Program-made: the position numbers and the translations under genes | Notes under the pieces: generated by a model | Database searches by the model: none | Told to the model about the DNA's origin: nothing | Seen by the model: only the letters and a program-made list of their open reading frames with translations | NCBI GenBank assembly: GCA_035652435.1 | Contig: DASRDU010000014.1 | Coordinates: forward strand, 1,359 to 65,358 | DNA from: Blastocatellia bacterium | GTDB taxonomy: Bacteria > Acidobacteriota > Blastocatellia > RBC074 | Direction: 5' to 3' | DNA: 64,000 nt | Part shown: piece by piece, positions 1-25,800 of the stretch | Position numbering within the stretch: the first letter of the stretch is position 1 | How the letters are laid out: the number at the start of each line of letters is the position of its first letter

Positions 1-1901
1 GCACGACGATGCACTCGATGCCGGGGTTGCCCGTGCTGCATTCCAAAGACCTGGTGAATTGGAAGCTCCTTGGCTATGCGTTCGACCGTTTGGACCTCGG
101 GCCGGAATTCCGGCTGGAAGACGGGAAGGAAGCTTATGGCCAGGGCATCTGGGCGCCGTGCTTTCGTTATCACAACGGGACTTTTTACATCTTCTCCAAC
201 GTCAACCGGCACCGCACGCAACTGTTCCGCGCCAGTAACCCTGCCGGCCCCTGGACTCGCACGGAACTCAGGCGCTCCTTCCACGATCTCTCCGTCCTCT
301 TCGATACGGACGGCAGGGTTTACGTCGTCTGGGGCTATCAGAACATCAATTTCGCCCGGCTCAATGACGAACTCACCGACATTATTCCCGGCACCGAGCG
401 CGTGATCATGCCGAAAGAGGCGGGTATGGGCGAGGGGCTTCACTTCTACAGGATTGATGGGAAGTATTACATTACCAGCGCATGGTTCGCCGGACGCATG
501 CGGATGCCCTGCGCCCGCGCCGACAAACCTGAAGGCCCATATGAAGTGAACCAGGCAATCAGCACGGATGAAGATTTCGGCCTCGCGGAGGGCTACCGCT
601 TGCAGCGCGGCACGCCGCCGCCGTTCAACGCGATCCCGCCGAACTCCGCGGATCGAGGCCGAATGTCGCTGCATCAGGGCGGCATCGTGAACACGCCGAG
701 CGGCGAGTGGTGGGGCTTTTCGATGATGGATTACAACTCCGTCGGGCGGCTCACGTGCCTCTCGCCCGTCACGTGGCAGGACGGCTGGCCCTGGTTCGGT
801 CTGCCGGGCAATCTTAAGCGCACGCCACGCACCTGGGTCAAACCCGATACCGGCCACACGTCGCCCCCGGCAGCGCCGTATGAACGCAGCGACGATTTCT
901 CCGGGCCGAAGCTGAAAAATGTCTGGCAGTGGAATTACCTGCCCGACGACACGAAATGGTCTCTGTCGGAGCGCCCCGGTTTCCTGCGCCTGCATTCGCT
1001 GCCGGCCTCGGATCTCTGGCGGGCGCGAAACACGTTGACGCAGCGCGCCGTCGGCCCCGTCTCCTTTCCCACCGCAGAACTGGACACGCGCGGAATGAAG
1101 GTGGGCGACGTTGCCGGACTGGCGCTCTTCAACTTCCCGTATGCGTGGATCGGCATCAGCCGGCAGTCCGACGGGGCGATGGTTGAACAGTTCGACCAGA
1201 CGACCGGCAGGACGTCGCGCGTCCCCCTCAAAGGAGCGCGGGTGTGGCTGCGCGCGCATTGCGATTTCCTGACGGAGAAGGCGCGGTTCAGCTACAGCAC
1301 GGACGGGAAGAAATTCGAGCCGCTGGGCGACGAGTTCACCATGGTTTTCCAGCTCAAAACCTTCCAGGGCGTCCGCTACTCACTCTTCCACTACCACACC
1401 GGCGCCGGAGCAGGCGGCTATGCGGATTTCGACAGGCTGACGGTAGACGAACCGCATCCGCATGGCCTGATGAGGCCGATCCCCTTCGGCAAAAAGATCA
1501 CGCTCTCGGTCTCCGGCGACGGCCCGGTACTCGTGGTGAAAGACGGCGGACTATCCGCCGTGCCTGCCGGAGACCCGCTGGCCGGCGGGGCGGCGGCGCA
1601 ATTCAAAGTGGTGGATCGGGGGCTCGGCCGTGTCGCGCTGCAATGGGGCGAGGCATTCGTTTCGGTGGCAGCGTCGGGAGGCAACGGGCGGGTGACGTTA
1701 AGATCAGGGCGACCGACCGACGCTGAAACCTTTCAATGGACCGAAACACCGTATGGTGACCTGATCCTGCTTTCGCTCGTCACTCACCGCCACCTGCGGA
1801 TTGATCCCGGCAGCGGCGCTCTCACCGCCGATCATCCTGGCCCACAGCCGGACCGAAAAGATGGCTCGTGCCTGAGATGGAAGGAGAGCAGCAATTACTG
1901 A
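1..1901 (+). CDS. Glycoside hydrolase family 43 protein (beta-xylosidase / alpha-L-arabinofuranosidase / exo-galactanase type). The 5' end is truncated by the window edge.
   Basis: Window opens inside the GH43 5-bladed propeller: 'HSKDLVNWKLLGYAF', 'GIWAPCFRYHNGTFYIF', followed by a C-terminal beta-sandwich. The frame is open to position 1 and lacks the signal peptide and first catalytic Asp region. Stop at 1899-1901. Confidence 0.85.
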   Translation, partial: TTMHSMPGLPVLHSKDLVNWKLLGYAFDRLDLGPEFRLEDGKEAYGQGIWAPCFRYHNGTFYIFSNVNRHRTQLFRASNPAGPWTRTELRRSFHDLSVLFDTDGRVYVVWGYQNINFARLNDELTDIIPGTERVIMPKEAGMGEGLHFYRIDGKYYITSAWFAGRMRMPCARADKPEGPYEVNQAISTDEDFGLAEGYRLQRGTPPPFNAIPPNSADRGRMSLHQGGIVNTPSGEWWGFSMMDYNSVGRLTCLSPVTWQDGWPWFGLPGNLKRTPRTWVKPDTGHTSPPAAPYERSDDFSGPKLKNVWQWNYLPDDTKWSLSERPGFLRLHSLPASDLWRARNTLTQRAVGPVSFPTAELDTRGMKVGDVAGLALFNFPYAWIGISRQSDGAMVEQFDQTTGRTSRVPLKGARVWLRAHCDFLTEKARFSYSTDGKKFEPLGDEFTMVFQLKTFQGVRYSLFHYHTGAGAGGYADFDRLTVDEPHPHGLMRPIPFGKKITLSVSGDGPVLVVKDGGLSAVPAGDPLAGGAAAQFKVVDRGLGRVALQWGEAFVSVAASGGNGRVTLRSGRPTDAETFQWTETPYGDLILLSLVTHRHLRIDPGSGALTADHPGPQPDRKDGSCLRWKESSNY

Positions 1902-1944
1902 TTCTGCCCGCGGGGCAGCGGCTCAGTCCTGACCCAATACATTT

Positions 1945-2229
1945 ATGAAGCAATGGCTGCGATTTACTTTCTGCTTTGCAGCGCTGGTCTCAATCCTGCC
2001 CGGCGCTGACTCGACGGCCTTACGGCTCCAGCATGCTCCGCCCGACGCTGTGGTGCAAGCGGCGGCGCGCGCTGCTCAGCAACGGCGACCGAATATTGTT
2101 CTGATCTTCCCCGACAACCCTGGCTGGGGCGAAGTGGGCGTCTTCGGCAGCGTGCGCGGCGTGCGGACGCCGCGCCTTGACCGGCTCGCCGCCCAGGGGA
2201 TTCGGCTCAATAACTACGGCCAGGCGTAA
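1945..2229 (+). pseudogene. Sulfatase N-terminal relic. It has a signal peptide and the 'PNIVLIFPDN...RTPRLDRLAAQG' region, and is truncated just before the C-x-P-x-R formylglycine motif.
   Basis: The 94-aa ORF matches only the first ~90 residues of type I sulfatases; compare the intact paralog at 7086-8756. The DD metal-site is degenerated to DN. It stops with TAA where the CxPxR motif should follow, and no downstream continuation exists in any frame. Confidence 0.6.
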
Positions 2230-2375
2230 GAAGTAATGGCGGCAGGAGCGCTCAACGCCGCCATCTAACAAGGCGTTGCAGCGGAGGCCACGAAGCAGGT
2301 TTCTTATGGTTCTCTGAGTGCCGTTCGTGGCCCCGCTGAACGCGGGCGTCAGGCGGCCTGCTGGCGGCGCACGAC

Positions 2376-2858
2376 ATGGAGGAGATTATGGACACACAAA
2401 AGTTGATAGCTTCTTTAGAGGCTGCACCCGGTATTATCATTGGGCTCGTCCGCGAGGTGCCGCCCCAGAACCTTAAGCGCCGCCCTGCGCCGAACAAGTG
2501 GTCCGCTCACGAGCATGCCTGCCACATATCTGGCGGCGACGCGGCGTTCCTCTCACGCCTGGAGTTGATGCTCTCTGACCCGCACCCCCAAATAAAGTCT
2601 ATGAAACCATCACCGGACGAGGAGGCCGGCTCACTACTGAGCGTTGATCTGGACGAAGCGCTGAGCCGGTACGTGCGCGAGCGGGCACTGGTCGTTAAGC
2701 GGTTGAAGGAGCTATCCGCAGAGGATTGGCAGCGGACCGCCGAACACGAGGCGTTCAGCCACTACTCGGTGTATATAATGTTCAGGCACCTGCTGATGCA
2801 TGAGATGCTTCACGCCTACAGGATAGATGAGCTGATGCTGAAAAAGGATTGGGAGTAA
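2376..2858 (+). CDS. DinB/YfiT-like (DinB_2) metal-dependent hydrolase family protein.
   Basis: A 160-aa four-helix-bundle DinB signature with conserved His ('HEHACH', 'LLMHEMLHAY'). A GGAGGA RBS precedes the internal ATG at 2388, which is the likely true start. GC content and codon usage are visibly lower than the neighbours (uses ata, tta, aaa, tat codons). Confidence 0.7.
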   Translation: MEEIMDTQKLIASLEAAPGIIIGLVREVPPQNLKRRPAPNKWSAHEHACHISGGDAAFLSRLELMLSDPHPQIKSMKPSPDEEAGSLLSVDLDEALSRYVRERALVVKRLKELSAEDWQRTAEHEAFSHYSVYIMFRHLLMHEMLHAYRIDELMLKKDWE

Positions 2859-3116
2859 ATAACTGGCTGGACAGTCGCCGCCTGGCAACTCGTTCGAGCG
2901 GACCAATCCTCGCTCCCTCGCTGCACTCGGTCTCTGCGGTTGGCCGCTCAACGCGGGCGTCAGATATCTGCAGCTCTCAACAAATAAAATTCCGCAATCG
3001 TTGAAACCAATAAACCAACAATCTTTGTCAGGATTGATCTGAACTTATGCCGCGTAGCATGTTCCGATCAAATATGAAGTCCTTTATTTGAACTGCCAGG
3101 AAGGAATCTACACCCC

Positions 3117-4622
3117 ATGAACCGCCGCCACTTCATCAAAACCGCCGCCCTGAGCGCCGCCTCCTTCACCACTTCACCCTTCCCGCGCACCGATGACGCC
3201 GAGTTGCAACCCATCTGGGCGCAGATCGAAAAGCGCCGCGACGAAAGCCTGCGGCGGTTGCAGGAATGGATTCGCCAGCCCGCGATTGCCGCCGAAAATC
3301 GCGGCATGCACGAAGGCTGCGAGTTGATGATGCAACTGCTCCGCGAAACCGGGTTCACCCAGGTCACCAAAATCCCGACCGACGGGCATCCCGGCGTATT
3401 CGCGCTGCACGACGCGGGCGCGCCGCGTACGCTGGGCATTTATTTCATGTACGACGTGAAGCAGGTTGATCCCGCCGAGTGGTCGTCGCCGCCGTTTGAC
3501 GCGGCGTTGATGGACAAGCCGGGCCTGGGCAAGGTACTCGTAGGGCGCGGCGCAACCAATCAGAAAGGCCCGCAGGCGACCTTGCTGGCCGCGCTGCACG
3601 CCATACGCGGCGCGGGCAAACGGCTGCCGGTCAATCTGGTCTTCGTGGCCGAAGGCGAAGAGGAGATCGGTTCGCCGCATTTCCCCCAGGTCATCGCGCG
3701 CGCCGAAGTCAACGCCGCCCTGCGCCGTTGCAGCGGCGTCTTCATGCCCTTCCCCTCGCAAGACCCCGGCGGCGAAGTCACGATCAATCTGGGCGCGAAG
3801 GGCGTGATCGAACTCGAACTCGTGGCGAGCGGCGAACGCTGGGGGCGCGGGCCACGGCGCGACACGCATTCGAGCAACAAGGCGCGGCTGGATAGTCCGG
3901 CCTGGCATCTGGTGCAGGCGCTCAATACGCTGGTCGCCGCCGACGGCAATACGCCCGCGATTGCACATTACACCGACAAGGTGCGCCCGCTTACCGACGC
4001 CGAGAAAAAGATGATCGCCACGGCGGCGAGCCGCCTGAATGAAGCCGCGACGAAAAAATCGCTTGGCGTAGAGCGTTGGATGCGCGACGCGAGTTTCCGC
4101 GAATCGCTGGAGATGCTGGTGTCACAGCCTACGATCAACATCGAAGGACTGGTGGGCGGCTACACCGGGCCGGGCGGCAAGACCATCCTGCCGCACCGGG
4201 CCGTCGCCAAACTCGACCTGCGGCTGGTGCCGGATATGACCGCCGCTGAGGCGTTGGCCGCGCTCAAGGCGCATTTGGCGCAACGCGGGTTTGGCGATCT
4301 TGAAGTGAATATGACGGGCGGCTATGACCCTACGAGTACGGCAGCGGATTCTGCTTTGGTGCGCGCGCAGGTGGCGGTGTACAAGCGTGCGGGGATTGAG
4401 CCGATCATCATGCCGCGGCTGGCGGGTTCGTGGCCGGGCTATGTGTTCACGGGCGCGCCGCTGCGCTTGCCGGCGGGACATTTCGGACTTGGACACGGTG
4501 GCGGAGCGCATGCGCCGGATGAGTACTACGTGATCGAATCGGCCAATCCGAAGGTGGCGGGGATGGTGGGGGCAACGCGGTCGTATGTGGAGTATCTTTA
4601 CGAACTGGGCCGACAGGCTTAA
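3117..4622 (+). CDS. M20-family metallopeptidase (dipeptidase / carboxypeptidase G2-like) with a Tat signal.
   Basis: N-terminal 'MNRRHFIKTAALSAASF' Tat motif. M20 catalytic and dimerisation-domain motifs ('GATNQKGP', 'EGEEEIGS', 'HFGLGHGGGAHAPDE'). AGGAAGGA RBS upstream. Confidence 0.85.
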   Translation: MNRRHFIKTAALSAASFTTSPFPRTDDAELQPIWAQIEKRRDESLRRLQEWIRQPAIAAENRGMHEGCELMMQLLRETGFTQVTKIPTDGHPGVFALHDAGAPRTLGIYFMYDVKQVDPAEWSSPPFDAALMDKPGLGKVLVGRGATNQKGPQATLLAALHAIRGAGKRLPVNLVFVAEGEEEIGSPHFPQVIARAEVNAALRRCSGVFMPFPSQDPGGEVTINLGAKGVIELELVASGERWGRGPRRDTHSSNKARLDSPAWHLVQALNTLVAADGNTPAIAHYTDKVRPLTDAEKKMIATAASRLNEAATKKSLGVERWMRDASFRESLEMLVSQPTINIEGLVGGYTGPGGKTILPHRAVAKLDLRLVPDMTAAEALAALKAHLAQRGFGDLEVNMTGGYDPTSTAADSALVRAQVAVYKRAGIEPIIMPRLAGSWPGYVFTGAPLRLPAGHFGLGHGGGAHAPDEYYVIESANPKVAGMVGATRSYVEYLYELGRQA

Positions 4623-5419: not shown

Positions 5420-7039
5420 TCAAGCGAGTTGAATCTCGATGGCCGCGACGGCTTGCCTGGGAATGTCTACGGCGAGGGTCTCACCGCTGATTTTGACCGG
5501 CAAGGAAGCGGGCCTGACTTCGTTGGTATTTTGGAAGGTATTGCGGGCGCGCATGTCGCTGTGGGTGAGTACGGTGCCGCGCCCCTCGCTGGCCCGCGCA
5601 CCGCCCGCCAGGCGGATGCGAGCAATAATGGGCGAATCCACGGACGCATTGGTGAGCGTGACCGTCAGGCGTTTCTCGCGGAGCGAGGCGGAACCCGTCA
5701 GTCCCGCTATTTTCGCTGTGCTGTCTTGCACCGGGACGGTCAATTGATCTGCTCGAATCTGCATTGGCACTGAGCGCGCGCCCAGATGTGGGCGATACAT
5801 CTCGAACACGTAATAAGGCGGGGTGCGCGTGTACTTGTCTTCAAGCGCCAGGAAGAGCGAATGAATGCAGTTGACCGTCTGCGCGACGTTGGCCATCTCG
5901 ATCTTGTCGGCGTGCCGGTTGAAGATGTCGAAAGTGATGGCCGTGTGCAACGCGTCACGCAGCGTGACGGGCTGGCTCAGGATGTAACCGGGCGTAATCT
6001 CTTCGCCCGGCTGATACCAGACGCCCCATTCGTCAATCACGAGCCTGGTGCGGTGCTGCGGGTCGTACTTGCCCATCACTTTCCAGTGTTCCTCGATGAT
6101 TGCCTCGGTGCGCAATCCTTCGAGCAGCACGGCGTACCAATCGGGCGCTTTGAAATCCGCCACCCTCATTTTGTTGTTACGGAAGTCGGTGTAGAAGTGC
6201 AGCGAGAAGCCATTTACCTGGCTGCGGTGCCCGCCCTGCATCGCCGCGAAGAATCCGTCCGTCCAGCCCAGGTCCATATCGCGTGAATGCCCGCGCGGGC
6301 CGGTCGCGACCAGGAACGGCGTCACATAAACGGGGAACTGCGTGACGAACTTGCGATACTCGACGGCGTATTCGCCCGGCTTCATATCGCCCCCGCAGCC
6401 CCACGATTCATTGCCGACGCCCCAATATTTCACGCGGAACGGCTCCTTGTCGCCGTTGGCCGCGCGCTCGTCGGCCAGGCTTTCCGTACCCGCCGGGGCA
6501 TTGCAATAAGAGACCCAGTCGTGAAACTCCCTGGGCGTGCCCGAACCGACGTTGGCCGCCAGGTAAGGTTCGGCACCGATGAGGCGGCAGAGTCGCATGA
6601 ACTCGTGAATGCCGAACTGATTGGTCTCGGTCGCGTGCAGCCCCTGGGGCATGCGACTCTCCCAAAAGTTATAAGTCCGCGGGCGCCTGGCGGCGGGGCC
6701 GATGCCGTCGCGCCAGTGATAGCCGTCGGCGAAGCAGCCGCCGGGCCAGCGTAAATTCGGCGCGCCGATGCGCTTCATGTCGTCAATGAATTGCCTGCGC
6801 ATTCCGTCCACGTTCGGGATCCTGGAATTGCGCCCCACCCAGATGCCGTCATAGATCACCCCGCCGAGATGCTCGATGAAATGCCCGTAGATGTGAGGGT
6901 TGATGACCGCGCCCGCCCTGTCCGGCGCTAATTCGATTTCGGCGTCTGCGGCCGGCGTGCGCCGTGAGGCCGCCCACGCGCCGAGTCCGGTGCCGAGTCC
7001 CGTGTAAGCTGCTGACTTGAGGAAAGTGCGTCTTTGCAT
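5420..7039 (-). CDS. GH51 alpha-L-arabinofuranosidase (Tat signal).
   Basis: 'MQRRTFLKSAAYTGLGTGLGAWAA' Tat leader. GH51 TIM-barrel signatures 'NLRWPGGCFADGYHWRDGIGP', 'YWGVGNESWGCGG', 'IDEWGVWY', and the C-terminal beta-sandwich. A paralog lies at 31439-33001. Confidence 0.9.
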   Translation of the reverse strand: MQRRTFLKSAAYTGLGTGLGAWAASRRTPAADAEIELAPDRAGAVINPHIYGHFIEHLGGVIYDGIWVGRNSRIPNVDGMRRQFIDDMKRIGAPNLRWPGGCFADGYHWRDGIGPAARRPRTYNFWESRMPQGLHATETNQFGIHEFMRLCRLIGAEPYLAANVGSGTPREFHDWVSYCNAPAGTESLADERAANGDKEPFRVKYWGVGNESWGCGGDMKPGEYAVEYRKFVTQFPVYVTPFLVATGPRGHSRDMDLGWTDGFFAAMQGGHRSQVNGFSLHFYTDFRNNKMRVADFKAPDWYAVLLEGLRTEAIIEEHWKVMGKYDPQHRTRLVIDEWGVWYQPGEEITPGYILSQPVTLRDALHTAITFDIFNRHADKIEMANVAQTVNCIHSLFLALEDKYTRTPPYYVFEMYRPHLGARSVPMQIRADQLTVPVQDSTAKIAGLTGSASLREKRLTVTLTNASVDSPIIARIRLAGGARASEGRGTVLTHSDMRARNTFQNTNEVRPASLPVKISGETLAVDIPRQAVAAIEIQLA

Positions 7040-9538: not shown

Positions 9539-11678
9539 ATGAAAAGAACCGCGAAAAGGTCGCTTCTGTCAGGGTTGGTCTGGACAGTTTTAGCGATTGC
9601 AGTTCCGGCCCAGGTCGCCACGACCGGACAACTGGTCGGCACCGTGCAGGATCAATCGGGCGCAACCGTCCCCGGCGTCGGGTTGCGGCTGCAGAATGAA
9701 GACACGAAAGCCGTGCTGACCGCCACGGCCGGCGCCGAAGGGGGCTTCGTCTTTCCGACTTTGTCGCCGGGCAGCTACACCCTGACCGTCAGCAAACAGG
9801 GGTTCGAGACGACGGTTTACCGCAGGCTCATCATCTACGCGGCGCGCACGACCGATCAGACTGTGGTTTTGAATATCGGCACCGTCACGCAGACCGTCGA
9901 AGTGCAGGGCGAAGGGCAGGTCCTCCAGACGACAACCAACACCATCGCCAGCACGGTGGATCAGAAATACCTGCAGGACCTGCCGCTGCCGGGGCGCAAC
10001 GCATTGCCCTTCGTGTTGCTCTCGGCGGGAGCGCAGCAGGGCGTCACCTCGCGCGACAGCACGATTAACGGGTTGCCGGGCGCTTCGCTCAACATCACGC
10101 TCAACGGCGTCGCCAACAACGCGCAGCGCTTCAAGAGCGGCGGCACCAGCTTCTTCGCGTTTGTTGCGCCCCGTCTGGAGAGCGTGCAGGAAGTTACCAT
10201 TGCCACATCAAACCTCGGCGCGAATAGTACCGGACAGGGCGCGGTTCAGATTCAATTCGTCACCAGATCGGGCACGAACGCCTGGCACGGCGAGGTCTTC
10301 TGGCAGCACCAGAACTCGGCGCTCAACGCCAACAACTGGTTCAATAACGCGCGCGGCATCAAGCGACCCGTGTTCATACAGAACGACCAGGGCGGGGCGC
10401 TCGGCGGGCCAGTCATCAAAAACAAACTCTTCTTCTTTGTCAGTTATGCGCACGTGAAGACGCCGCAATCGTCAGACTACGAAGCCCGCGTCCTCGCGCC
10501 GGCCGCGCAAACGGGCGTCTTCACCTACGTCGGCAGCGACGGCACGACGCGGAGCGTGAACCTGCTTCAGATCGCCGGGGCGAGCGGCTTACCGAGTACC
10601 GTCAACCCGATCATCGCCGCGCAGCTGCAGAAGATTCAATCGTCCACTTCGGCAGGTGCCGTCTCCACCTTCGATCTGTTCCGCAACCGATTACGCTGGG
10701 TCGCGCCGTCGCCCACCACCAACCAGTTTATGACGGCGCGATTTGACTATCAGCCCTCGGAAAAGCTGCGCCTGAGCGTCTCCGACACCTATAACCGGAA
10801 TGTGAACGACCGGGGATTTCGCGGGACGGTCCTGCCCGGCGTCTTCACCGAGGAGCAGTCGGTCGGGCAAATCTCCAACCCCTACATTGCCGGCGCCAGC
10901 GCCAACTGGACGCTCAGCCCGAACAAGGTCAACGAGTTCAATTTCGGCATTCAGAGCAATCAGGAGACTTTCAGCATCGGCTACGACCGCAGCCTCTTCA
11001 AGCCACGGCTGCTGAACTTTCCGCTGTCGCTGGCGAGCGGGCTGGAGGCGCAGAACAGCATCGGCAGCGGCATTACCTTCCAGCCGCGCAACAACCCCGT
11101 CTACAATCTGGCGGACAATTTCTTTTACCAGCGTGGCAACCATCCTCGACGGCGTGATCGGCGGCTGGACGGTCGGCGCGATCTTCCGCATGCAGTCGGG
11201 TCTGCCCTTCAAGCTGAGCAGCGGTCGCCTGACAGTCAACCAGTCGGATGCGGGCGTGGTTTTGAATGGGGTGACGACTTCTGACCTGCAAAAGCTGGTC
11301 GGCGTCTTCAAAGGCTCCGGCCCGGATGTCTTCTTCCTCGACCCGAAGCTCACAGGCAGTGACGGGCGCGCGAGCAGCAGTTTCCTCACCTCGCCCGCAA
11401 CGCCGGGCCAGTTCGGGGCCTTCGTCTATTTGCACGGGCCGCGGTTTGTGACGACGGACCTGTCGCTCGCGAAGGTGGTGCCGCTCATCAGGGAACGCGT
11501 GCGGATGGAGATCAGGGCCGAGATGGTCAACGCCTTCAACCACCCGATCTTTGAAGTGCCGACGGGCGGAACATTTGGTGTCACGCCCGTCAGTATTACG
11601 GCAACGAACTTTGGCCGCACGACGACCACCACGTCAGTCCCACGCCAGGTGCAGTTCAGGATTCGATTCACGTTTTAA
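9539..11678 (+). pseudogene. Carboxypeptidase-regulatory-domain TonB-dependent receptor-like outer-membrane protein, decayed by an internal deletion of ~1.6 kb plus a frame change.
   Basis: ORF 9539-11284 (581 aa) matches the N-terminal ~560 aa of the intact paralogs (22880-26779, 45483-49358), up to '...NNPVYNLADNFFYQRGNH'. The reading then continues in the +2 frame (11133-11678) and matches only the last ~180 aa of the paralogs ('ILDGVIGGWTVGAIF...VQFRIRFTF'). The central ~550-aa barrel region is missing. Confidence 0.75.
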
Positions 11679-18424: not shown

Positions 18425-20992
18425 ATGGTCATCCGCAAATGTATCAAGCTTGTCTTTCTTGCGGGCGTGTGCTGTCTGGTCGTGTTTTTCACCCGGCTGC
18501 CGCGCGTCGGCGCCGAGCTGCGGCAGGATGAGGCGCAGGACATCTCGAGGCAGGCGTACGCCATTCTGAAGAAGAACTGCCTCGCCTGCCACGGCGCGGC
18601 CAGAACTTCCGGCCTCGACCTGCGGACGGGCGAAGGCGTGACGATGGGCGGCGACAACGGACCCGTCATCGTGCCTTCCGACGCCGAGGCCAGCAAACTC
18701 TTCCAACTCGTCACGCACGAGCGGAAGCCGACGATGCCGCCGGGCAAAAAGCTTGCGGACGCCGAGATTGAAACGCTGCGGCGCTGGATCGAAGCGGGCG
18801 CCCCGACCGACGGGTTTGAGAAGACTGCCGCCGCCCCTTCGGGGGATGCCGGCAAAGCCGAACTCGCCAGACTGGAAGATCGTCCCATCACACCCGAAGA
18901 GCGCCGCTACTGGGCGTTCCAGCCGCCGCGGCGCGCGACACCGCCGCGCGTCGCCCCGGCCGACTGGAACAAAAACCCAATAGACACCTTTCTGCTTTCG
19001 GCGATGAAGGCGAAAGGCCTGAAGCCGTCGCCGCGCGCGGACCGCCGCACGCTCGTCCGCCGCGCTTACCTCGATCTGCTCGGCCTGCCGCCGAGCCCCG
19101 AAGAGGTGGCGGCCTTTGAAAAAGACACGGCGCCCGATGCCTGGGAGCGGCTCTTGGAGAGGCTGCTCGCCAGCCCGCATTACGGGGAGCGGTGGGCGCG
19201 CCACTGGCTCGACCTCGTGCGCTACGCCGATTCCGGCGGCTTCGAGTTTGACGTGGACCGGCCCGACGCCTGGCGCTACCGCGATTACGTCGTCAAATCC
19301 TTCAACGACGACAAGCCATATGACCAGTTCGTTAAGGAACAGCTCGCCGGGGATGAGTACGCGCCCGATTCACAGGAGGCGATGATCGCGACCGGGTTCC
19401 TGCGCCTCGGGCCGGAAGGCGGCGGGGGCGGCGAGCGCGGGCGGCAGGATTCGCTTGACGACATCATCACGACCACCACGCTGACGTTCCTGGGGCTGAC
19501 GGTCGGCTGCGCGCGCTGCCATAATCATAAGTTTGACCCGATCCCGCAGAAGGACTATTACCGCATTCAGGCAGTCTTCTACTCGACGCGGCCCGCCAGT
19601 TATCCGCTCGTCGGCGCAGACGTGGTGGCGGCGCACAGGGCCGAAACGCAGCGTATCGAGAGTATGCAGCGGCCATTGAAGAAGGCCAAATCGGATCTGG
19701 AGGCGCCTTACCTGAAGGCGCTCGTGGAAGAGGCCGTCAGCCGGCTGCCCGAATACATGCAAATCGCCTGGCGCACGCCCCCTGAGAAGCGCACGCCCGG
19801 CCAGCGCCTCAACGTGCAGCAGATCAGGAAGACGCTCGAAGACGATGCGCTCTCGCAGAAGCTGACCGAAAAAGACATCGTCGCACGCATGACGCCCGAG
19901 GACAGGCGCAGGCACGAGGAGCTGGTCGAACAGATCAAGACGCTCGAACGGCAGAAGCCGAAGCCGTACCCGACGGCGCGGGCCATCGGAGAGGACGGAC
20001 CCCGGGCGCGGCCTTCGTATTTCCTGCATCGCGGCAGCGTGGACGCGAAAGGATCGCTCGTCAGCCCGGGCGTACTCTCGGTCGCCTGCGAGAGCGAATA
20101 CCAGTTCCCGGCGCCGCCCGCGAACGCGAAATCGAGTTTCAGGCGGCGTGGGTTTGCCGAGTGGCTGGTCGCACCAGACAACCCGCTCACCGCGCGCGTC
20201 ATGGTCAACCGCATCTGGCAGCACCATTTCGGCGAGGGCATCGTCCGCACGCCCGGCAATTTCGGCCGGATGGGTGAGCCGCCCACACACCCCGAACTGC
20301 TCGACTGGCTGGCCACGGAGTTCGTCGCGCGCGGCTGGAGCATTAAGCAGATGCACCGCCAGATGATGACCTCGCAGGCCTATCAGATGGCGAGCAATGA
20401 CACGCCCGCGAACGCGGCCATTGACCCCGAGAATCGCTTCTTCTGGCGCATGCCGCGCGTGCGGCTGGAAGCCGAGATCATCCGCGATCAGATTCTGGCC
20501 GTCGCGGGCAACCTGGATCGCACGCTGGGCGGCCCGTGCGTCTATCCGTACATTGATCCGAAGCTTTTCCAGTCGAGTACCAAACGCACGTGGCCGGGTA
20601 AGCCCGACGATGACCCTTCAACATGGCGGCGTAGCCTGTACGTCTACTCCAAGCGGAGCATCCGCTACCCGCTTTTTGAAGCCTTCGACCAGCCGAACCT
20701 GATCAACTCCTGCGAACGCCGTAACCGCTCGACCATCGCGCCGCAGGCGCTGCTGCTGATGAACAACAACTTCGTCATCATGGAGTCGAAGTTCTTCGCC
20801 GAGCGTTTGCGGAAGGAGGCGGGCGACGACGCGCGGGCGCAGGCCGAACGGGCCTTTCGGCTGACGCTGGCGCGCGCGCCGACTGCGTTTGAGCTGACGA
20901 AAGCCGTGGAGTTCATTCGGAGCGGCCCGGACGGGCTCGCCGGATTCTGTCAGGCGTTATTCAATCTGAATGAATTCGTCTACTGGCAATAA
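18425..20992 (+). CDS. PSCyt1-DUF1549-PSCyt2-DUF1553 (PSD1) domain protein (the 'planctomycete cytochrome c' family).
   Basis: 'CLACHGAARTSGLDLRT' (heme-like CxxCH), DUF1549 'GERWARHWLDLVRYADSGGFEFD', 'CARCHNHKFDPIPQKDYYRIQAVF', and C-terminal DUF1553 'SCERRNRSTIAPQALLLMNNNF'. Confidence 0.85.
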   Translation: MVIRKCIKLVFLAGVCCLVVFFTRLPRVGAELRQDEAQDISRQAYAILKKNCLACHGAARTSGLDLRTGEGVTMGGDNGPVIVPSDAEASKLFQLVTHERKPTMPPGKKLADAEIETLRRWIEAGAPTDGFEKTAAAPSGDAGKAELARLEDRPITPEERRYWAFQPPRRATPPRVAPADWNKNPIDTFLLSAMKAKGLKPSPRADRRTLVRRAYLDLLGLPPSPEEVAAFEKDTAPDAWERLLERLLASPHYGERWARHWLDLVRYADSGGFEFDVDRPDAWRYRDYVVKSFNDDKPYDQFVKEQLAGDEYAPDSQEAMIATGFLRLGPEGGGGGERGRQDSLDDIITTTTLTFLGLTVGCARCHNHKFDPIPQKDYYRIQAVFYSTRPASYPLVGADVVAAHRAETQRIESMQRPLKKAKSDLEAPYLKALVEEAVSRLPEYMQIAWRTPPEKRTPGQRLNVQQIRKTLEDDALSQKLTEKDIVARMTPEDRRRHEELVEQIKTLERQKPKPYPTARAIGEDGPRARPSYFLHRGSVDAKGSLVSPGVLSVACESEYQFPAPPANAKSSFRRRGFAEWLVAPDNPLTARVMVNRIWQHHFGEGIVRTPGNFGRMGEPPTHPELLDWLATEFVARGWSIKQMHRQMMTSQAYQMASNDTPANAAIDPENRFFWRMPRVRLEAEIIRDQILAVAGNLDRTLGGPCVYPYIDPKLFQSSTKRTWPGKPDDDPSTWRRSLYVYSKRSIRYPLFEAFDQPNLINSCERRNRSTIAPQALLLMNNNFVIMESKFFAERLRKEAGDDARAQAERAFRLTLARAPTAFELTKAVEFIRSGPDGLAGFCQALFNLNEFVYWQ

Positions 20993-20996
20993 ACAT

Positions 20997-21100
20997 CCCC
21001 GGGAGCGCACGCGGCCCGCGTGCTGGTTTGGGTCTGAAGCCCCTTGAGCGACAGATGAGTCTCTCGTCACTGGCACGCGAGCCGCGTGCGCTCCCGGGAT
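20997..21100. terminator. Long GC-rich hairpin between the PSD1 and DUF1501 genes: an 18-bp perfect inverted repeat that extends to ~28 bp with bulges, and a 65-nt loop.
   Basis: CCCGGGAGCGCACGCGGC (20998-21015) pairs with GCCGCGTGCGCTCCCGGG (21081-21098). The flanking CGCGTGC/GCACGCG extend the stem. No U-tract. Confidence 0.6.
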
Positions 21101-21111
21101 AGATACTGGCA

Positions 21112-22524
21112 ATGAAGCAATACTTCTGTTCGAGACGAGAGCTTTTGCAGCAGCTGGGCGGCGGCATCGCCGGCGTCGCCTTCGCCGACCTGCTCTGCCG
21201 CAACGGGCTGCTGGCGCAGACCAGATCGCCGCTCGCGCCCAAAGCGCCGCACTTCCCGGCCAAAGCCAAAGCGGTGATCTCGATCTTCTGTTACGGCGGC
21301 GTCAGCCAGGTGGACACCTTCGACCCCAAGCCCGAACTGCTCAGACGCCAGGGCGAGGCGATGACGGGCGTGGGCGAAGTGCGCCCGACGATGGGCACGC
21401 CCGGCGGGCTGATGCCCTCGCCGTGGGAGTTCAAAAAGCGCGGGCAGTGCGGGATGGAGATTTCAGAGCTGTTCCCTCGCGTGGCCGAACACGCCGACGA
21501 CCTGGCGCTGATCCGCTCGATGACGGCGCTCAGCCCGGCGCACGGCCCCGCGCTATTCCAGATGAACACGGGCAGCATCCTCGCCGGGCACCCGAGCGTC
21601 GGCAGCTGGGTGACGTACGGGCTGGGCAGCGAGAACGAAAATCTCCCGGGCTTCATCGTCTTCACGGATTATCGCGGCGGCCCGATCAACGGCGCGCCCA
21701 ACTGGGGCAACGGCTACATGCCGGCGGCGTATCAGGGCACGCCGTTCCGCGACACCGGCGACCCGATCGTTGACCTGCGCCCGCCCGAAGGGCGCACGCC
21801 GGAAGGGCAGCAGAAATGGCTGCGGCTCCTGCGCGAACTCAATGAAAAGCACCTCGACCACAACCCCGAAGACGGCGAGCTGGCGGCGCGCATCCACTCC
21901 TATGAACTGGCTTTCCGCATGCAGACGCACGCCACCGACGCGATTGACATCAGCAGGGAATCCGCCGCGACGCTGAAAGCTTACGGCGTGGGCGAGCAGC
22001 CGACCGATTACTTTGGCCGCCAGGCCCTGATGGCACGGCGGCTGGTCGAACGCGGCGTGCGCTTCGTGCAGATCTTTTCGGGCGGCGGCAACTTCGAGCC
22101 GAGCTGGGACGCGCACTGGGATTTGAAGGGCAACCACGGCCTGCATTGCGCCGAGACCGACAAGCCCATCGCCGGCCTGATCAGTGACCTCAAGGGCCGC
22201 GGCCTCTTCGATTCGACGCTCATCCTCTGGCACGGCGAGTTCGGGCGCCTGCCGATTTCCGAGCGGATGGACGGGCGCGATCACAACGCCGCAGGCTTCA
22301 GCGTCTGGCTGGCCGGGGGCGGCGTCAAAGGCGGCACGGTCGTCGGCGCGACTGACGAGTACGGCTACCGCGCCGTCGAGAACAAAAAGACGATCTACGA
22401 ACTGCACGCAACGTTGCTGCACCTGCTCGGGCTCGATTACGAGAAGCTGACCTACCGTTTCGGCGGGCGCGACATGCGGCTGACCGATGTCCACGGGCGC
22501 GTGATCAGGGAGGTTCTGGCCTGA
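21112..22524 (+). CDS. DUF1501 domain protein (sulfatase-like fold, Tat-secreted). It is the canonical partner of PSD1/DUF1553 proteins.
   Basis: 'SRRELLQQLGGGIAGVAFADL' Tat leader. DUF1501 core 'ISIFCYGGVSQVDTFDPKP', and C-terminal 'ILWHGEFGRLP...DHN'. Confidence 0.85.
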   Translation: MKQYFCSRRELLQQLGGGIAGVAFADLLCRNGLLAQTRSPLAPKAPHFPAKAKAVISIFCYGGVSQVDTFDPKPELLRRQGEAMTGVGEVRPTMGTPGGLMPSPWEFKKRGQCGMEISELFPRVAEHADDLALIRSMTALSPAHGPALFQMNTGSILAGHPSVGSWVTYGLGSENENLPGFIVFTDYRGGPINGAPNWGNGYMPAAYQGTPFRDTGDPIVDLRPPEGRTPEGQQKWLRLLRELNEKHLDHNPEDGELAARIHSYELAFRMQTHATDAIDISRESAATLKAYGVGEQPTDYFGRQALMARRLVERGVRFVQIFSGGGNFEPSWDAHWDLKGNHGLHCAETDKPIAGLISDLKGRGLFDSTLILWHGEFGRLPISERMDGRDHNAAGFSVWLAGGGVKGGTVVGATDEYGYRAVENKKTIYELHATLLHLLGLDYEKLTYRFGGRDMRLTDVHGRVIREVLA

Positions 22525-22879
22525 GAGTCAAAGGGGCGATTCAGCCGGCCCCTCACTAAGCTCATTCAAGCCTGCTTAAGCCGGTACAAGACCTGCTGAC
22601 GAAGGCAGTGTTTTATTGACACTGTTCTCACTTCTTAAGGAATCGCGTGACGGGTTTGATCGAAATTGATAGAAATGAGCATTCCCGAAAATCGCGGATC
22701 AACTGACTGACACTACCTTTAGCTGGCTTTGCGGGGTTCAGTGGGCCGGACGCCGCGTCCTTTGGCAGACGACAACAGGCCGGATGTGGCGTCCGGTTCC
22801 GAATAAATTTGTGTTCCCCGCTCGAAGGCGGGGGAGGGGATTGGACTCTCACCTATCAATTACCTGAGGGGGGTTGGTT

Positions 22880-25800
22880 ATGGAACGACCACATGCGAGA
22901 AAGCTGAATCAGAGCCGGGCAGTGATCGGAATGTTGTTGCTGCTGGCCGTACTCTTAATTCCTGCCACCACGGCCCGGGCGCAGTTGCGGATTGTCGGGT
23001 CGGTCTCCGGGACGGTCCAGGATTCGACCGGGGGCGTGATCCCGAACGCCAGGGTTGTTTTGAAAGACTCGAAAACCGGCATCACGAAGGAAGTCACCTC
23101 GACCGAGAGAGGTACATTCCTGTTTCCGGATCTGCCCAGCGGCTTGTACGAGGTGACGGTGACGGCGCCGGGATTTCGGACGGCGCTCCTCAATAACATC
23201 TCCGTTTCGACCAACCAGACGACGGACGTGCGGATCAGCATGGAGGTCGGCGCCACGTCGGAAACCATCACGGTGAGTGGCGGAGATGCGCAGACGCTCG
23301 AAACCTCCTCTCAACTGGTGGCGAGTACCCTGACGACACAGACGCTCGCTCAACTGCCGGTCGCCAATCGCAGCAATGTTCTGGCGCTGGCCCGGCTCGC
23401 TCCCGGCGCCTCACCTCCCACGGGCGGCAGCACGCGCTACAACAACCTGGCGGGCGGCGCGGTCAACGTCACCGTGGACGGCATCAACAATGCCTCGAAT
23501 GGGTTCAAGAGCGGCGGGACCGTCTTCTTCGCAACCGTGCCTTCCCGCCTGGGGGCGGTGGAAGAGGTGACGGTGGAGACCGGCGGTCTGGGCGCGGACT
23601 CCGGCGCGCAGAGCGGCGCGAATATCAAATTCACCACCCGGCGCGGCGGCAACCAGTATCACGGCAGCGGCTTTTACGAATTGCGCAGCGAGCAGCTCAG
23701 CGCGAACAGCTGGTCGAGAAACGCCCAGGGGTTGCCGCGAGTTTACAACCGCAATCACGAGTTCGGCGGGAATTTCGGCGGGCCGCTGGTTCCATTCTTC
23801 GGGTTGAGAGAGAAGCTCTTCTTCTTCGTCAACTATGAATACCGGTACAACCCGCAATTCAACAGCACGACACTGGCCATCCCGACGCCCGACGCGCTGA
23901 AAGGCATCTACACGTATGTCGTCAGCGGCACGACCAATCAGCTGCGGACGGCCAACGTGCTGGACCTGGCCGCCGCGCGGGGCCTGCGGACGACGCTCGA
24001 TCCGGTCGCGCAGGCAATCCTCAACATCAATAACCAGATTCCGAAATACAGCCGGCAGATTGCGGATAACGATTTCAACCGCGATTTCTACACCTGGGAT
24101 GCGGAGAACAATCTGAAACAATACTTCCCCACCACGCGGGTGGATTATTTCGTGACGCCGAAACAGCAGCTGACGTTCACCTGGAACTACTACCACAGCT
24201 GGCAGCCGGGCGCGCGGCGCCTGCCGGTGCCGGACATCGAAAGAACCAACCCGTTCCGCATCGGCTATTTCGTCTATTCCGGCGCGCTGCAATCCACGTT
24301 CGGGACGCGCACCTTCAACGAATTCCGCTACGGCGTGCAGCACAGCGGGGACACCAACACGCGCGATGAGTACGGCCCCTACTATCAGTTCAACAACAAG
24401 CCGTTGCGCATCGGCGCGACGTTGCCGTTCAGCCTCGCGAGCCCGCAGGGCCCTCTGGTTCCGTTCATTGACCAGCAGAACGTGACGGGCCGGCACTTCA
24501 TCACGACGATGTACGACACGATGACGCTCAACCGCGGGCAGCATACGATCACGCTCGGTGGCAGCTACCGCAAAACCTCCTGGAACGATGTCGCCGTGGT
24601 TTATCAGGTCCCGACGTACGCCACCGGCACGCCGTCGGGCGATCCGCTGCAAGTGTCACAGGCGTACACCACCACCACCCTGCCCGGGATCAACAGCACC
24701 CTGCTGGGCGATCCCCTGGCGCTCTACAACCTGTTGACCGGCAGAGTCGCCTCGTCAGGCTTCACCCGTGTCGTCAACCCTGAGACGCTCAAATACGACG
24801 GCATCCAGGAGCAGAACTACACCTGGACCAACTCGAAAATGGGCGGCCTCTACGCGCAGGATCGCTGGCGCATCCGGCGAAGCCTGACCTTGAATTACGG
24901 CTTACGCTGGGAGGTGCAGGGCCCGATGAAGGACGGCAAGGGGCTGACGGCAGTCCCGGATCTGGCGAGCCTGTTCGGGCCTTCGAAGAGATTGTTTGCG
25001 CCGGGCGACCTGAGCGGTAACAACAACCCGACGGTCGAAGTCGGCCGGGTGCCCTACGACACGGACTGGCTCAATTTCGCGCCCAACATCGGTTTTGCCT
25101 GGAATCCCAATAAAACCGACGGCCTGCTGGGCAAAGTGCTGGGCGGTCAGAAGACCGTCTTCCGTGGTTCCTATTCGACCATTGTCTACGACGAAGGGAC
25201 GCAGTTTTTTGCGGCCAACTTGGGGCCGAATGCAGGCAAAACAATCGGGGCCACCACGCTCATACCGGGGACGGCGGGCGCGACCAGTCTGCCGGCCTTC
25301 TACACGCTCTCGGACATCGTGGGCAATCCGCTGACCGTTTCAAATTTCGCGTTCACGACGACCGAGTACAAGAAGGTCATCAACCAGGCGGATCAGACTT
25401 TCGCGCGGACGATCAATGGTTTTGACCCCAACCTGCGCGCGCCGTACACCGAAAATTATACCTTCGGCATTCAGCGCGAGTTGTGGAAGAACACGGTGCT
25501 GGAAGTTCGCTACGTGGGCAACCAGTCGAAACTCGCCTGGCGCACCAGCAATTTGAACGAGGTCAATATCTTTGAAAATGGCTTCCTGAACGAGTTCAAG
25601 AACGCGAAGAAGAACCTGGACATTAACGTGGCGGCCGGCGTCAACAGCTTCCAGAATCTGGGGCGTTCGGGGCAGGTGGCGCTGCCGATCTTCGACGCCG
25701 CTTTCGGCGCTCGCGGCGCGCTCGCGGCAATCGCGGCCGGCTCCGGTTACCAGTCCACGGCCTTCATCACCAACCTGCAAAACGGCGAGGCCGGCGCCCT

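Follow-up and report, generated by a model that had tools for sequence, protein, structure and literature searches.

A Probable Two-attC Integron Cassette Cluster with a DinB_2 Gene beside a Truncated Sulfatase Gene in a Soil Blastocatellia Chromosome

Introduction

Clusters of attC sites that have no integron integrase (CALINs) are defined as two or more attC sites without a nearby intI gene (Cury et al. 2016, PMC4889954). CALINs with two sites are the most frequent, accounting for 1,362 of 2,961, and may stem from insertion into the genome (Loot et al., bioRxiv 10.1101/2022.09.11.507474). Here we describe a two-attC CALIN at approximately positions 2234-2965 of a 64-kb stretch of chromosome from a soil Blastocatellia bacterium (Acidobacteriota; contig DASRDU010000014.1), a stretch referred to below as the window. 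An earlier note on this DNA had drawn attention to an 18-bp direct repeat around a DinB_2-family gene next to the stub of a sulfatase gene. The assignment as a CALIN follows from the published definition, as the two attC sites are 611 bp apart (less than 4 kb) and no integrase is present in the window. We place the probability that the two sites are integron attC sites bounding a gene cassette, with recombination by an integrase as the predicted activity, at roughly 85%.

The locus shares with other CALINs (Cury et al. 2016, PMC4889954; Neron et al. 2022, PMC9024848) two co-oriented attC sites, a single cassette that bears an open reading frame (ORF), and the lack of an integrase in the window. 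It also has their commonest size, two sites, and a cargo that is not antibiotic resistance. It differs from them in its R′ cores, which read GTC, in one R″ that reads GGC, and in a first "cassette" that is nearly a bare attC fused to a truncated host gene. Chromosomal integron attC sites are documented in Acidobacteria (Ghaly et al. 2021, PMC8352920), and our references for this group are the loci L001 (GCA_038040445.1), L002, and L095, which we assumed to be sedentary chromosomal integron arrays of Acidobacteria. The window sites resemble the sites of these arrays in the attC consensus (gcCGCC-TAAC, a 4-nt spacer, and cGTTaGGCgg), in a G/C bulge and an A bulge that are 6 bp apart, and in the frequent loop motif CGAAGC..GTTTCT. 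The same DinB cassette is present in the arrays with 91% DNA identity and a conserved ribosome-binding site, GGAGGAG. In contrast to the fetched L001 and L002 stretches with at least 13 sites, the window has two, and its element sits among polysaccharide-degradation genes and has noncanonical cores.

Two other systems are also close. In insertions at attG sites and in single attC sites lacking integron-integrases (SALINs), as in the window, a cassette is found outside an integron beside a disrupted host gene, and in that system an adjacent chromosomal deletion is a documented outcome of off-site excision (bioRxiv 10.1101/2022.09.11.507474). Unlike those cases, the window has two attC sites instead of one, its left junction deviates from GWT, and the event itself is reconstructed. 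The attC_aadA7 site of class 1 mobile integrons (Nivina et al. 2016, PMC5027507; Frumerie et al. 2010, PMC2811028) has two extrahelical bases 6 bp apart and an unpaired central spacer, as do the window sites. The extrahelical bases on the bottom strand of the second window site are G and T, as in aadA7 (G16, T23), and the R″ of the first site ends in TCTAAC, also as in aadA7. The window sites are longer than attC_aadA7 (86-92 nt versus approximately 60), GC-rich, and have GTC in R′. The element thus belongs to a known class, being a CALIN of two attC sites that carries a DinB_2 cassette, and its mildly unusual point is the pairing of two GTC cores. What had been an unexplained repeat can now be annotated precisely as a pair of attC sites, a DinB cassette of 611 bp whose crossover points are defined, and a sulfatase pseudogene.

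The Two attC Sites

The features that make up the cluster are as follows.

2260-2358, + strand: attC site 1 (covariance model R1, structural scan, DNA fold z = -3.2)
2877-2969, + strand: attC site 2, the DinB cassette's own site (covariance model R1, structural scan, homology to the L001 attC)
2349-2959, + strand: DinB gene cassette of 611 bp (bounded by the two crossover points; blastn against L001)
2388-2858, + strand: DinB_2-family gene, 156 aa (PF12867, PF05163; ribosome-binding site GGAGGAG at 2379-2385)

The 18-mers lie at 2335-2352 (GCTGAACGCGGGCGTCAG) and 2946-2963 (GCTCAACGCGGGCGTCAG) and agree at 17 of 18 positions. The repeat around the DinB gene thus stands as first described, with coordinates that move by 1-2 nt from the 2334-2351 and 2948-2965 originally given. 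No further copy with two or fewer mismatches is present in the 64-kb window, and at three or fewer mismatches there are four matches where 0.45 are expected. Each 18-mer forms the L′-R′ (3′) arm of an imperfect hairpin of about 90 nt, and the 5′ arms of the two hairpins are related as well (70% identity over 27 nt).

The attC sites of integrons are recognized by their R and L boxes, by extrahelical bases on the arm opposite the one with the cleaved triplet, by an unpaired central spacer, and by a variable terminal structure (PMC5027507). In the window, site 1 consists of R″ ATCTAAC (2263-2269), a spacer AAGG, a stem spanning 2274-2342 with bulged G2278 and A2285, a spacer CGGGC, and R′ GTCAGGC (2348-2354), with the crossover between G2348 and T2349. 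Written out, the site reads ATCTAAC-AAGG-CGTT[G]CAGCGG[A]GGCCACGAA...loop...TTCGTGGCC-CCGCTG-AACG-CGGGC-GTCAGGC, and its loop has the motif CGAAGC..GTTTCT..GGTTCT that is present in several foreign sites. Site 2 consists of the R″ region GCCGCCTGGC (2877-2886), a spacer AACT, a stem spanning 2891-2953 with bulged C2895 and A2902, a spacer CGGGC, and R′ GTCAGAT (2959-2965), with the crossover between G2959 and T2960. It reads CCTGGC-AACT-CGTT[C]GAGCGG[A]CCAA...loop...TTGG-CCGCTC-AACG-CGGGC-GTCAGAT. Both sites are R″-L″...L′-R′ imperfect inverted repeats whose stems, 19 bp in site 1 and 14 bp in site 2, are perfect apart from the bulges. These two single-base bulges are 6 bp apart and lie on the 5′ (top-strand) arm only, an arrangement shared with nearly all of the 31 foreign sites. 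The 4-nt and 5-nt spacers are unpaired in both, and loops of differing length and sequence bring the sites to 92 nt (site 1) and 86 nt (site 2).

A structural scan for this layout (4 bp, bulge, 6 bp, bulge, 4 bp, with at most one mismatch) found exactly two perfect matches in the window, site 1 and site 2, and gave same-strand series of matches in the foreign arrays. Covariance model R1 was trained on nine sites of L001 and L002, leaving aside the window sites and the attC of the L001 DinB cassette. In the window it gave 65.7 bits (E = 1.2e-14) for 2260-2358 (+) and 33.1 bits (E = 2.9e-6) for 2877-2969 (+), with a full-length alignment in each case. The next-best match in the window is the reverse strand of site 1, and all others have E values of at least 1.8. 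With filters off, R1 found no third attC within 1700-3400, and no Rfam family matched the window. We call the sites attC in spite of their GTC cores since the scaffold is that of an attC and the cores are variant or degenerate.

The DinB Cassette and Its Relatives

The boundaries of the mobile unit come from comparison with other genomes. By blastn, window positions 2354-2960 match L001 8141-8747 with 91.4% identity over 608 nt, and the ends of this match fall within 5 nt of the cassette limits 2349-2959. The homology runs across the DinB gene and the hairpin downstream of it and halts exactly at GGGCG|T. At the other end, the DinB units of the window, L002, and L003 start with T(T/C)nGGCGGC right behind an unrelated hairpin. 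From these homology limits and 5′ ends, the mobile unit is 2349-2959 (611 bp), bounded at the integrase cut position G|TT. These data show that the DinB cassette is mobile among genomes and has the boundaries stated here. The earlier note had considered cassette capture by site-specific recombination, and this idea is borne out: the repeats are attC sites, and the segment between the crossovers recurs in the arrays of other genomes. As a separate observation, the 5′ end of the cassette (2353-2369) has GGCGGC-CTGCT-GGCGGC where L002 has a single GGCGGC, an 11-nt local duplication.

The encoded protein matches PF12867 at 58.6 bits (cutoff 24.8; profile positions 2-125 of 128) and PF05163 at 31.3 bits, and it has the His-rich motifs HEHACH and HLLMHEMLH. 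The gene had been placed at 2376-2858 in the DinB_2 family; its family and end hold, and its start is probably the ATG at 2388, 3 nt past GGAGGAG, because relatives are 156 aa long. The ORF begins 39 nt past the crossover and is followed by its own attC in the same orientation, and no consensus promoter was found for it. This is a classical promoterless gene cassette. A sequence search of the PDB with the DinB protein returned no match, the plasmid collection had no close homologue (best 23% identity), and protein look-ups returned no record of the exact DinB protein with either start or of the exact protein of the neighboring M20 peptidase gene.

The DinB protein has 4,613 relatives; among the 120 listed, identity is 85-95% and the usual length is 156 aa. 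The listed relatives come from metagenome-assembled genomes (MAGs) of Acidobacteriota and from metagenomes, and wherever the source names an organism it is from Acidobacteriota. DinB genes with 87-95% identity occupy at least six distinct neighborhoods (L001, L002, L003-L006, L095, L096, and L098). In the arrays, the neighbors are small co-oriented genes that differ at each locus (for example, DUF1801, Glyoxalase, MOSC, SnoaL, ParE, and acetyltransferase). A DinB cassette that is very abundant and highly conserved circulates in soil Acidobacteriota arrays and is occasionally stranded in ordinary chromosomal surroundings.

The arrays themselves have the organization of integrons. R1 found approximately 13 to 16 + strand sites each in L001 and L002 and six in L095, located between small co-oriented ORFs, and most genes in the runs are followed by a hairpin of attC layout, which in every case lies on the coding strand. 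When the 9-nt tail of one site in a foreign array is compared to the R″ flank of the following site, the mean fit is 7.1/9. The same tails fit unrelated sites at 6.0/9 (Mann-Whitney p = 1.4e-4) and their own site at 6.3/9 (p = 0.017). The foreign arrays behave like integron arrays in that the tail of site n-1 fits the R″ of site n best. In the window, the tail of site 1, TCAGGCGG, fits the R″ flank of site 2 at 8/9, and site 2 in situ reaches 4/9. This complementarity fits a site 1 that was already in place when the DinB cassette inserted, and it is supportive only.

A history that fits these results can be proposed. The DinB cassette would have been carried as a circle by an integron integrase, an enzyme that recombines the folded bottom strand of attC hairpins within the R′ core, where G meets the base that follows, and the cassette would have entered site 1 by attC × attC recombination. 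An insertion of this type would leave both flanks finishing in the same L′-R′ arm, would allow the bases just past the site 1 crossover (TCAGGCGGC) to pair with the R″ flank of site 2, and would make homology to other arrays start and stop at the crossovers. Once in place, the DinB gene may be expressed by read-through of the co-oriented transcript of a glycoside hydrolase family 43 (GH43) gene and the stub or from an unrecognized promoter. Site 1, almost without a cassette body, abuts a sulfatase gene that breaks off ahead of its catalytic Cys. Most likely, this gene lost its 3′ part through an off-site event of the integrase (insertion into, or deletion to, a genomic secondary site) or through the rearrangement that split these cassettes off a larger array. 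We infer in this way how the events followed one another, what truncated the gene, and that the element is now inactive.

The Sulfatase Relic

Two features lie immediately 5′ of the cluster.

1945-2229, + strand: N-terminal relic of a sulfatase gene, a pseudogene remnant (Pfam match, DNA alignment to L087-L092)
2216-2259, + strand: junction zone (sulfatase homology stops at approximately 2216-2220; alignment and direct sequence reading)

The stub ORF encodes 94 aa, a signal-peptide-like N-terminus followed by the first 45 or so residues of the catalytic domain, and ends with ...RRPNIVLIFPDNPGWGEVGVFGSVRGVRTPRLDRLAAQGIRLNNYGQA*. It covers only profile positions 1-42 of 301 of the Pfam Sulfatase family (PF00884) and scores 23.2 bits, below the 25-bit cutoff. 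In alignment to relatives, the stub terminates 2-3 codons short of the active-site Cys (in the segment ...FS-C-[TV]-V-S-R), where the relatives read on with FNVE[FY]SC[TV]VSRAALLTGRY. A functional sulfatase has the full catalytic domain, including the Cys or Ser that is converted to formylglycine, and the stub falls short of this. All sulfatase sequence from about codon 92 on is gone, and neither sequence reading nor blastn against the fetched loci found the 3′ remainder on the 3′ side of site 2. The earlier description of a stub that ends ahead of its active site, with the rest of the gene absent, is therefore confirmed.

Orthologous loci were recovered as L087-L092, in which the gene upstream of the sulfatase, encoding a metallo-β-lactamase (MBL)-fold protein, is 83% identical to that of the window at the DNA level. 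Sulfatase identity with these loci is 81.7% and is confined to window 1939-2215; beyond it their sulfatase extends with ...FNVEFSCTVSRAALLTGRY... The sulfatase of L087 is itself split into pieces of 132 and 142 aa, and R1 found no attC sites in the orthologous broken-sulfatase loci. The sulfatase of the window may already have been decaying beforehand. That a cassette event removed most of it is plausible but unproven.

The breakpoint at approximately 2216-2233 lies directly 5′ of attC site 1 and of an R′-like box at 2233-2243, G|TAATGGCGGC. The box, GTAATGGCGGC in full, resembles the R′ box of an attC and is complementary to GCCGCCAT (2258-2265), and the junction zone is possibly the left end of a very short first cassette without an ORF. 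Two further observations concern this zone. An 8-bp inverted repeat, ATGGCGGC (2236-2243) and GCCGCCAT, stands immediately 5′ of site 1, and the 17-mer CGCTCAACGCCGCCATC (2249-2265) is 76-82% similar to the 18-mer repeat. They may be remains of an earlier cassette end, a reading that finds no backing in the attC model. The likeness of CGCTCAACGCCGCCATC also led us to consider a third attC remnant, at 2244-2270, which was likewise unsupported by R1 even with filters off and was set aside.

The stub is not confined to one assembly. An NCBI Blastocatellia MAG has the identical 94-aa protein (VFD58_01575, annotated as hypothetical, on a contig of 206 kb), as do two SRA-derived assemblies, of which L094 shares the stub-attC1-DinB junction at 100% identity. 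The other, L093, ends at window position 2293 within the loop of attC site 1, and this end may be an assembly break at the hairpin or may reflect population heterogeneity to its right. We considered a conserved family of short sulfatase N-terminal proteins and rejected it: all database matches to the stub are 81-162 aa, and the short matches on long contigs are the first pieces of split or frameshifted full-length sulfatases (134 + 292 aa in L097, in addition to the split L087 gene described above).

Attempts to find the locus in an earlier state were negative. Neither an empty-site allele nor one with an intact sulfatase was recovered by orthologue retrieval or metagenome scans. The M20 peptidase gene, used as a route to an orthologous empty site, led to 80 loci of 67-84% identity, none with the neighbors of the window, and there was no synteny at that distance. 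A metagenome scan for the AT-rich right flank of the cluster gave 0 matches.

The orthologous region has also changed in other ways. In the source-lineage contig L093, a GH43 gene is located between the MBL-fold gene and the sulfatase, and in the sister-lineage contig L087 the latter two are adjacent, 16 nt apart. This difference in GH43 position indicates that the neighborhood was rearranged more than once. On the 3′ side of the broken sulfatase in L087 (approximately 2530-2715), and likewise in L088 and L089, is an element of about 190 bp with terminal inverted repeats of about 50 nt (CTAGTACTACAACGAGAAATC...CCGTAGGTTGTCCAACCTGCGGAG // CTCCGCAGGTTGGACAACCTACGG...GTTGTAGTACTAG). These three contigs, from different samples, are identical through the end of the element and wholly divergent beyond it. 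It is probably a repeat resembling a miniature inverted-repeat transposable element (MITE) that breaks or chimerizes assemblies.

Origin of the Cluster

How a cassette came to lie next to a truncated sulfatase gene can be explained in two ways, both compatible with attC sites that bound a cassette. We hold each as a serious candidate at somewhat less than even odds.

First, the cluster may be a tail left stranded from a chromosomal integron array that was once larger. A deletion or rearrangement would have fused this remnant with the sulfatase gene, at the cost of the integrase, the remaining cassettes, and the 3′ part of the sulfatase gene. The nearly identical L′-R′ arms of the two sites are typical of a single array (compare L095), and the body of cassette 1, at about 25 nt, is what a deletion would leave. 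Loss or separation of the integrase is a proposed origin of CALINs (PMC4889954), and L098 is another DinB array that ends abruptly at ordinary genes. On the other hand, the window has no intI pseudogene, insertion sequence, or extra attC remnant. The missing pseudogene is uninformative here, since 95% of CALINs have no intI pseudogene nearby (PMC4889954).

Second, and to our minds just as tenable, an integrase encoded elsewhere in the genome may have inserted the cassette or cassettes at a secondary, attG-type site in or near the sulfatase gene, with the 3′ part taken later by off-site excision or deletion. Experiments have shown insertion at non-att genomic positions and excision reaching beyond the insertion point, this manner of origin has been put forward for small CALINs and SALINs, and off-site excision can alter chromosomes (bioRxiv 10.1101/2022.09.11.507474). 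The R′-like box G|TAATGGCGGC, 4 nt past the stop codon of the stub, is where the left junction would be expected, and the surrounding genes are ordinary metabolic ones. However, this junction reads GTA and not the reported attG consensus GWT, and a simple insertion should leave the sulfatase 3′ half downstream, where it is absent. Moreover, the orthologous sulfatase was broken independently in a sister lineage without attC sites, and cassette activity is unneeded for its decay. Regardless of which route was taken, small integrase-less clusters of this type feed the debate over whether CALINs originate from array decay or from off-site insertion.

Noncanonical Cores and Points against the Assignment

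Several results weigh against reading the locus as an integron cassette, or against linking the cassette to the truncation. One concerns the cores. The R′ core is GTC at both window sites; among the foreign + strand sites it is GTT in 30 of 31 and GTC in none. The R″ of site 2 ends in TGGC rather than TAAC and is unique in this among the compared sites. Set against the conserved cores (R″ RYYYAAC, R′ GTTRRRY, with an AAC cleavage triplet on the bottom strand), only the R″ of site 1, ATCTAAC, fits. The locus therefore departs from the most conserved feature of attC sites, with GAC on the bottom strand of both R′ boxes and CTGGC at the end of the site 2 R″. The complementarity described above is also less than decisive. 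The tail of site 2 fits the R″ of site 1 at 6/9, the same as its in situ value, and a fit of 8/9 is reached by 14% of unrelated site pairs, which share the GCCGCC/GGCGGC flank. No integron integrase was found beside any reference array in flanks of up to 8-10 kb, and calling these arrays integrons thus rests on site architecture, organization, and the literature. A metagenome scan for the predicted empty-site junction GCTGAACGCGGGCG|TCAGATATCTGCAG gave 0 matches, and no excised circle was found, its predicted junction being ...CCGCTCAACGCGGGCG|TCAGGCGGCCTGCTGG... Finally, the independent decay in the sister lineage without attC sites indicates that the sulfatase is dispensable and that its truncation need not be cassette-caused.

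The core changes can be followed in some detail. The homologue of site 2 behind the L001 DinB gene has canonical CCTAAC and GTTCGGC. In total there are four departures from the consensus in the window, every one of them AT to GC, and the hairpin stems are still perfect. In the reconstituted R box of the cassette (site 2 R″ with the site 1 tail), one A:T pair is now G:C, with both sides changed. For IntI1, GTC in one partner allows wild-type-level recombination, and GTC in both partners lowers it approximately 150-fold (PMC2811028). Excision of the DinB cassette requires site 1 × site 2, both with GTC, and would probably be inefficient, leaving the cassette effectively fixed. The paired GTC cores may reflect neutral decay in a genome of 63% GC, selection that favored fixation, or a core particular to the lineage.

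A more specific version of these last possibilities treats the matching noncanonical cores as a functional state, either a lock that immobilizes the cassette or the mark of a lineage whose integrase prefers GTC. We regard this version as unlikely. If there is such a lock, it would provide a route by which integron cassettes become domesticated, fixed chromosomal genes. In any case, a cluster that combines a truncated host gene beside it with paired core changes is a usable case for studying integrase-mediated genome damage and cassette fixation.

Explanations without an Integron

The DinB gene could instead lie by accident between two copies of a non-integron repeat family, such as palindromes of the repetitive extragenic palindromic (REP) or MITE type, for example those mobilized by Y1/RAYT proteins. 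Such a family would account for the lack of an integrase near any array, and a PF01797 Y1_Tnp gene lies approximately 6-7 kb from the DinB gene in L003-L006. The sites, however, have an asymmetry specific to attC: both bulges lie on a single arm, the spacer is unpaired, and 30 of the 31 foreign sites have AAC/GTT cores. There is one site per small co-oriented ORF, always on the coding strand; the homology blocks stop at G|TT; the R″ of site n has its cognate in the tail of site n-1; and just two copies are present in 64 kb of the window genome. We consider this explanation very improbable. Least credible of all is that the 18-mers are a transposon-type target-site duplication, as the earlier note had also entertained, or a chance repeat around a native gene: they are direct, 17/18 identical, and placed around the lowest-GC gene of the window, yet they sit inside structured recombination sites of about 90 nt with related left arms, not as duplicated host target beside an insert, lie 5′ of the crossover on both sides rather than at the edges of the homology block, come with neither terminal inverted repeats nor a transposase, are at 18 bp far above typical duplications, and belong to sites that a model trained on foreign sequences detects.

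Window Context and Minor Observations

One further feature borders the cluster on its right.

2964-3116, no strand: AT-rich noncoding tract of host or unknown origin (from the last attC to the M20 peptidase gene at 3117-4622)

The AT-rich tract noticed earlier downstream of the DinB gene is real, with 39.9% GC at 2964-3116 in a window of 63.2% GC. It has no blastn homology to any fetched locus and no consensus promoter or terminator. The atypical composition ascribed to the DinB gene holds in part. Its GC content of 57.5% is the lowest among the 41 ORFs of the window (mean 63.6%, z = -2.3) and equals that of the homologues in foreign arrays, whose loci have about 57% GC. Its GC content at third codon positions (71.8%, z = -0.74) and an index resembling the codon adaptation index (z = -1.4, with 5 of 41 ORFs lower) are inside the spread of the window, so the claim of atypical codon usage is not upheld. 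Composition hints at a foreign origin and is too weak to carry the argument.

Neither a tyrosine recombinase nor a transposase was found in Pfam scans of approximately 38 large ORFs of the window or in a six-frame search, and tblastn of the window with a hand-entered IntI1 query returned nothing. The span covered reaches about 61 kb downstream of the sites and about 2.3 kb to their upstream side, plus the MBL-fold and GH43 genes visible in L093; an integrase lying over 5 kb upstream would fall outside it. In 1.5 Mb of fetched loci, the only integrase sequence was a 70-aa IntI-like remnant in an unrelated locus, L082, from a Thermoanaerobaculia MAG. This segment (6273-6482, - strand) is 64% identical to the catalytic C-terminus of IntI1 (the same hand-entered query), has no intact ORF and no attC nearby, and may be what is left of an integron integrase.

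Another boundary without an integrase occurs in L098 (9880-10000, 10471-10521), where ordinary chromosomal genes give way to small genes, beginning with the DinB cassette. This cassette comes after an AT-rich tract and a weak attC that has canonical GGTTAGGCGGC, and its own downstream attC is lost.

The genes of the window encode GH43, GH51-type arabinofuranosidases, GH127, GH31, sulfatases, TonB-type barrels, regulators, and proteins of sugar metabolism. At 9539-11284 is a 581-aa protein with CarboxypepD_reg and OMP_b-brl_4 domains that covers only positions 1-299 of 838 of the barrel profile. Its paralogues at 22874-26779 and 45483-49358 are full length (about 1300 aa), and the gene at 9539-11284 may be a truncated outer-membrane receptor gene. 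Gene pairs of the PSCyt1/PSCyt2/PSD1-DUF1501 type are typical of Planctomycetes-type genomes. One such pair is found at 18425-22524, a PSCyt1/PSCyt2/PSD1 (DUF1549/DUF1553) protein followed by a DUF1501 protein, inside the polysaccharide-degradation cluster with its three GH127 genes, two arabinofuranosidase genes, GH31, and GH43.

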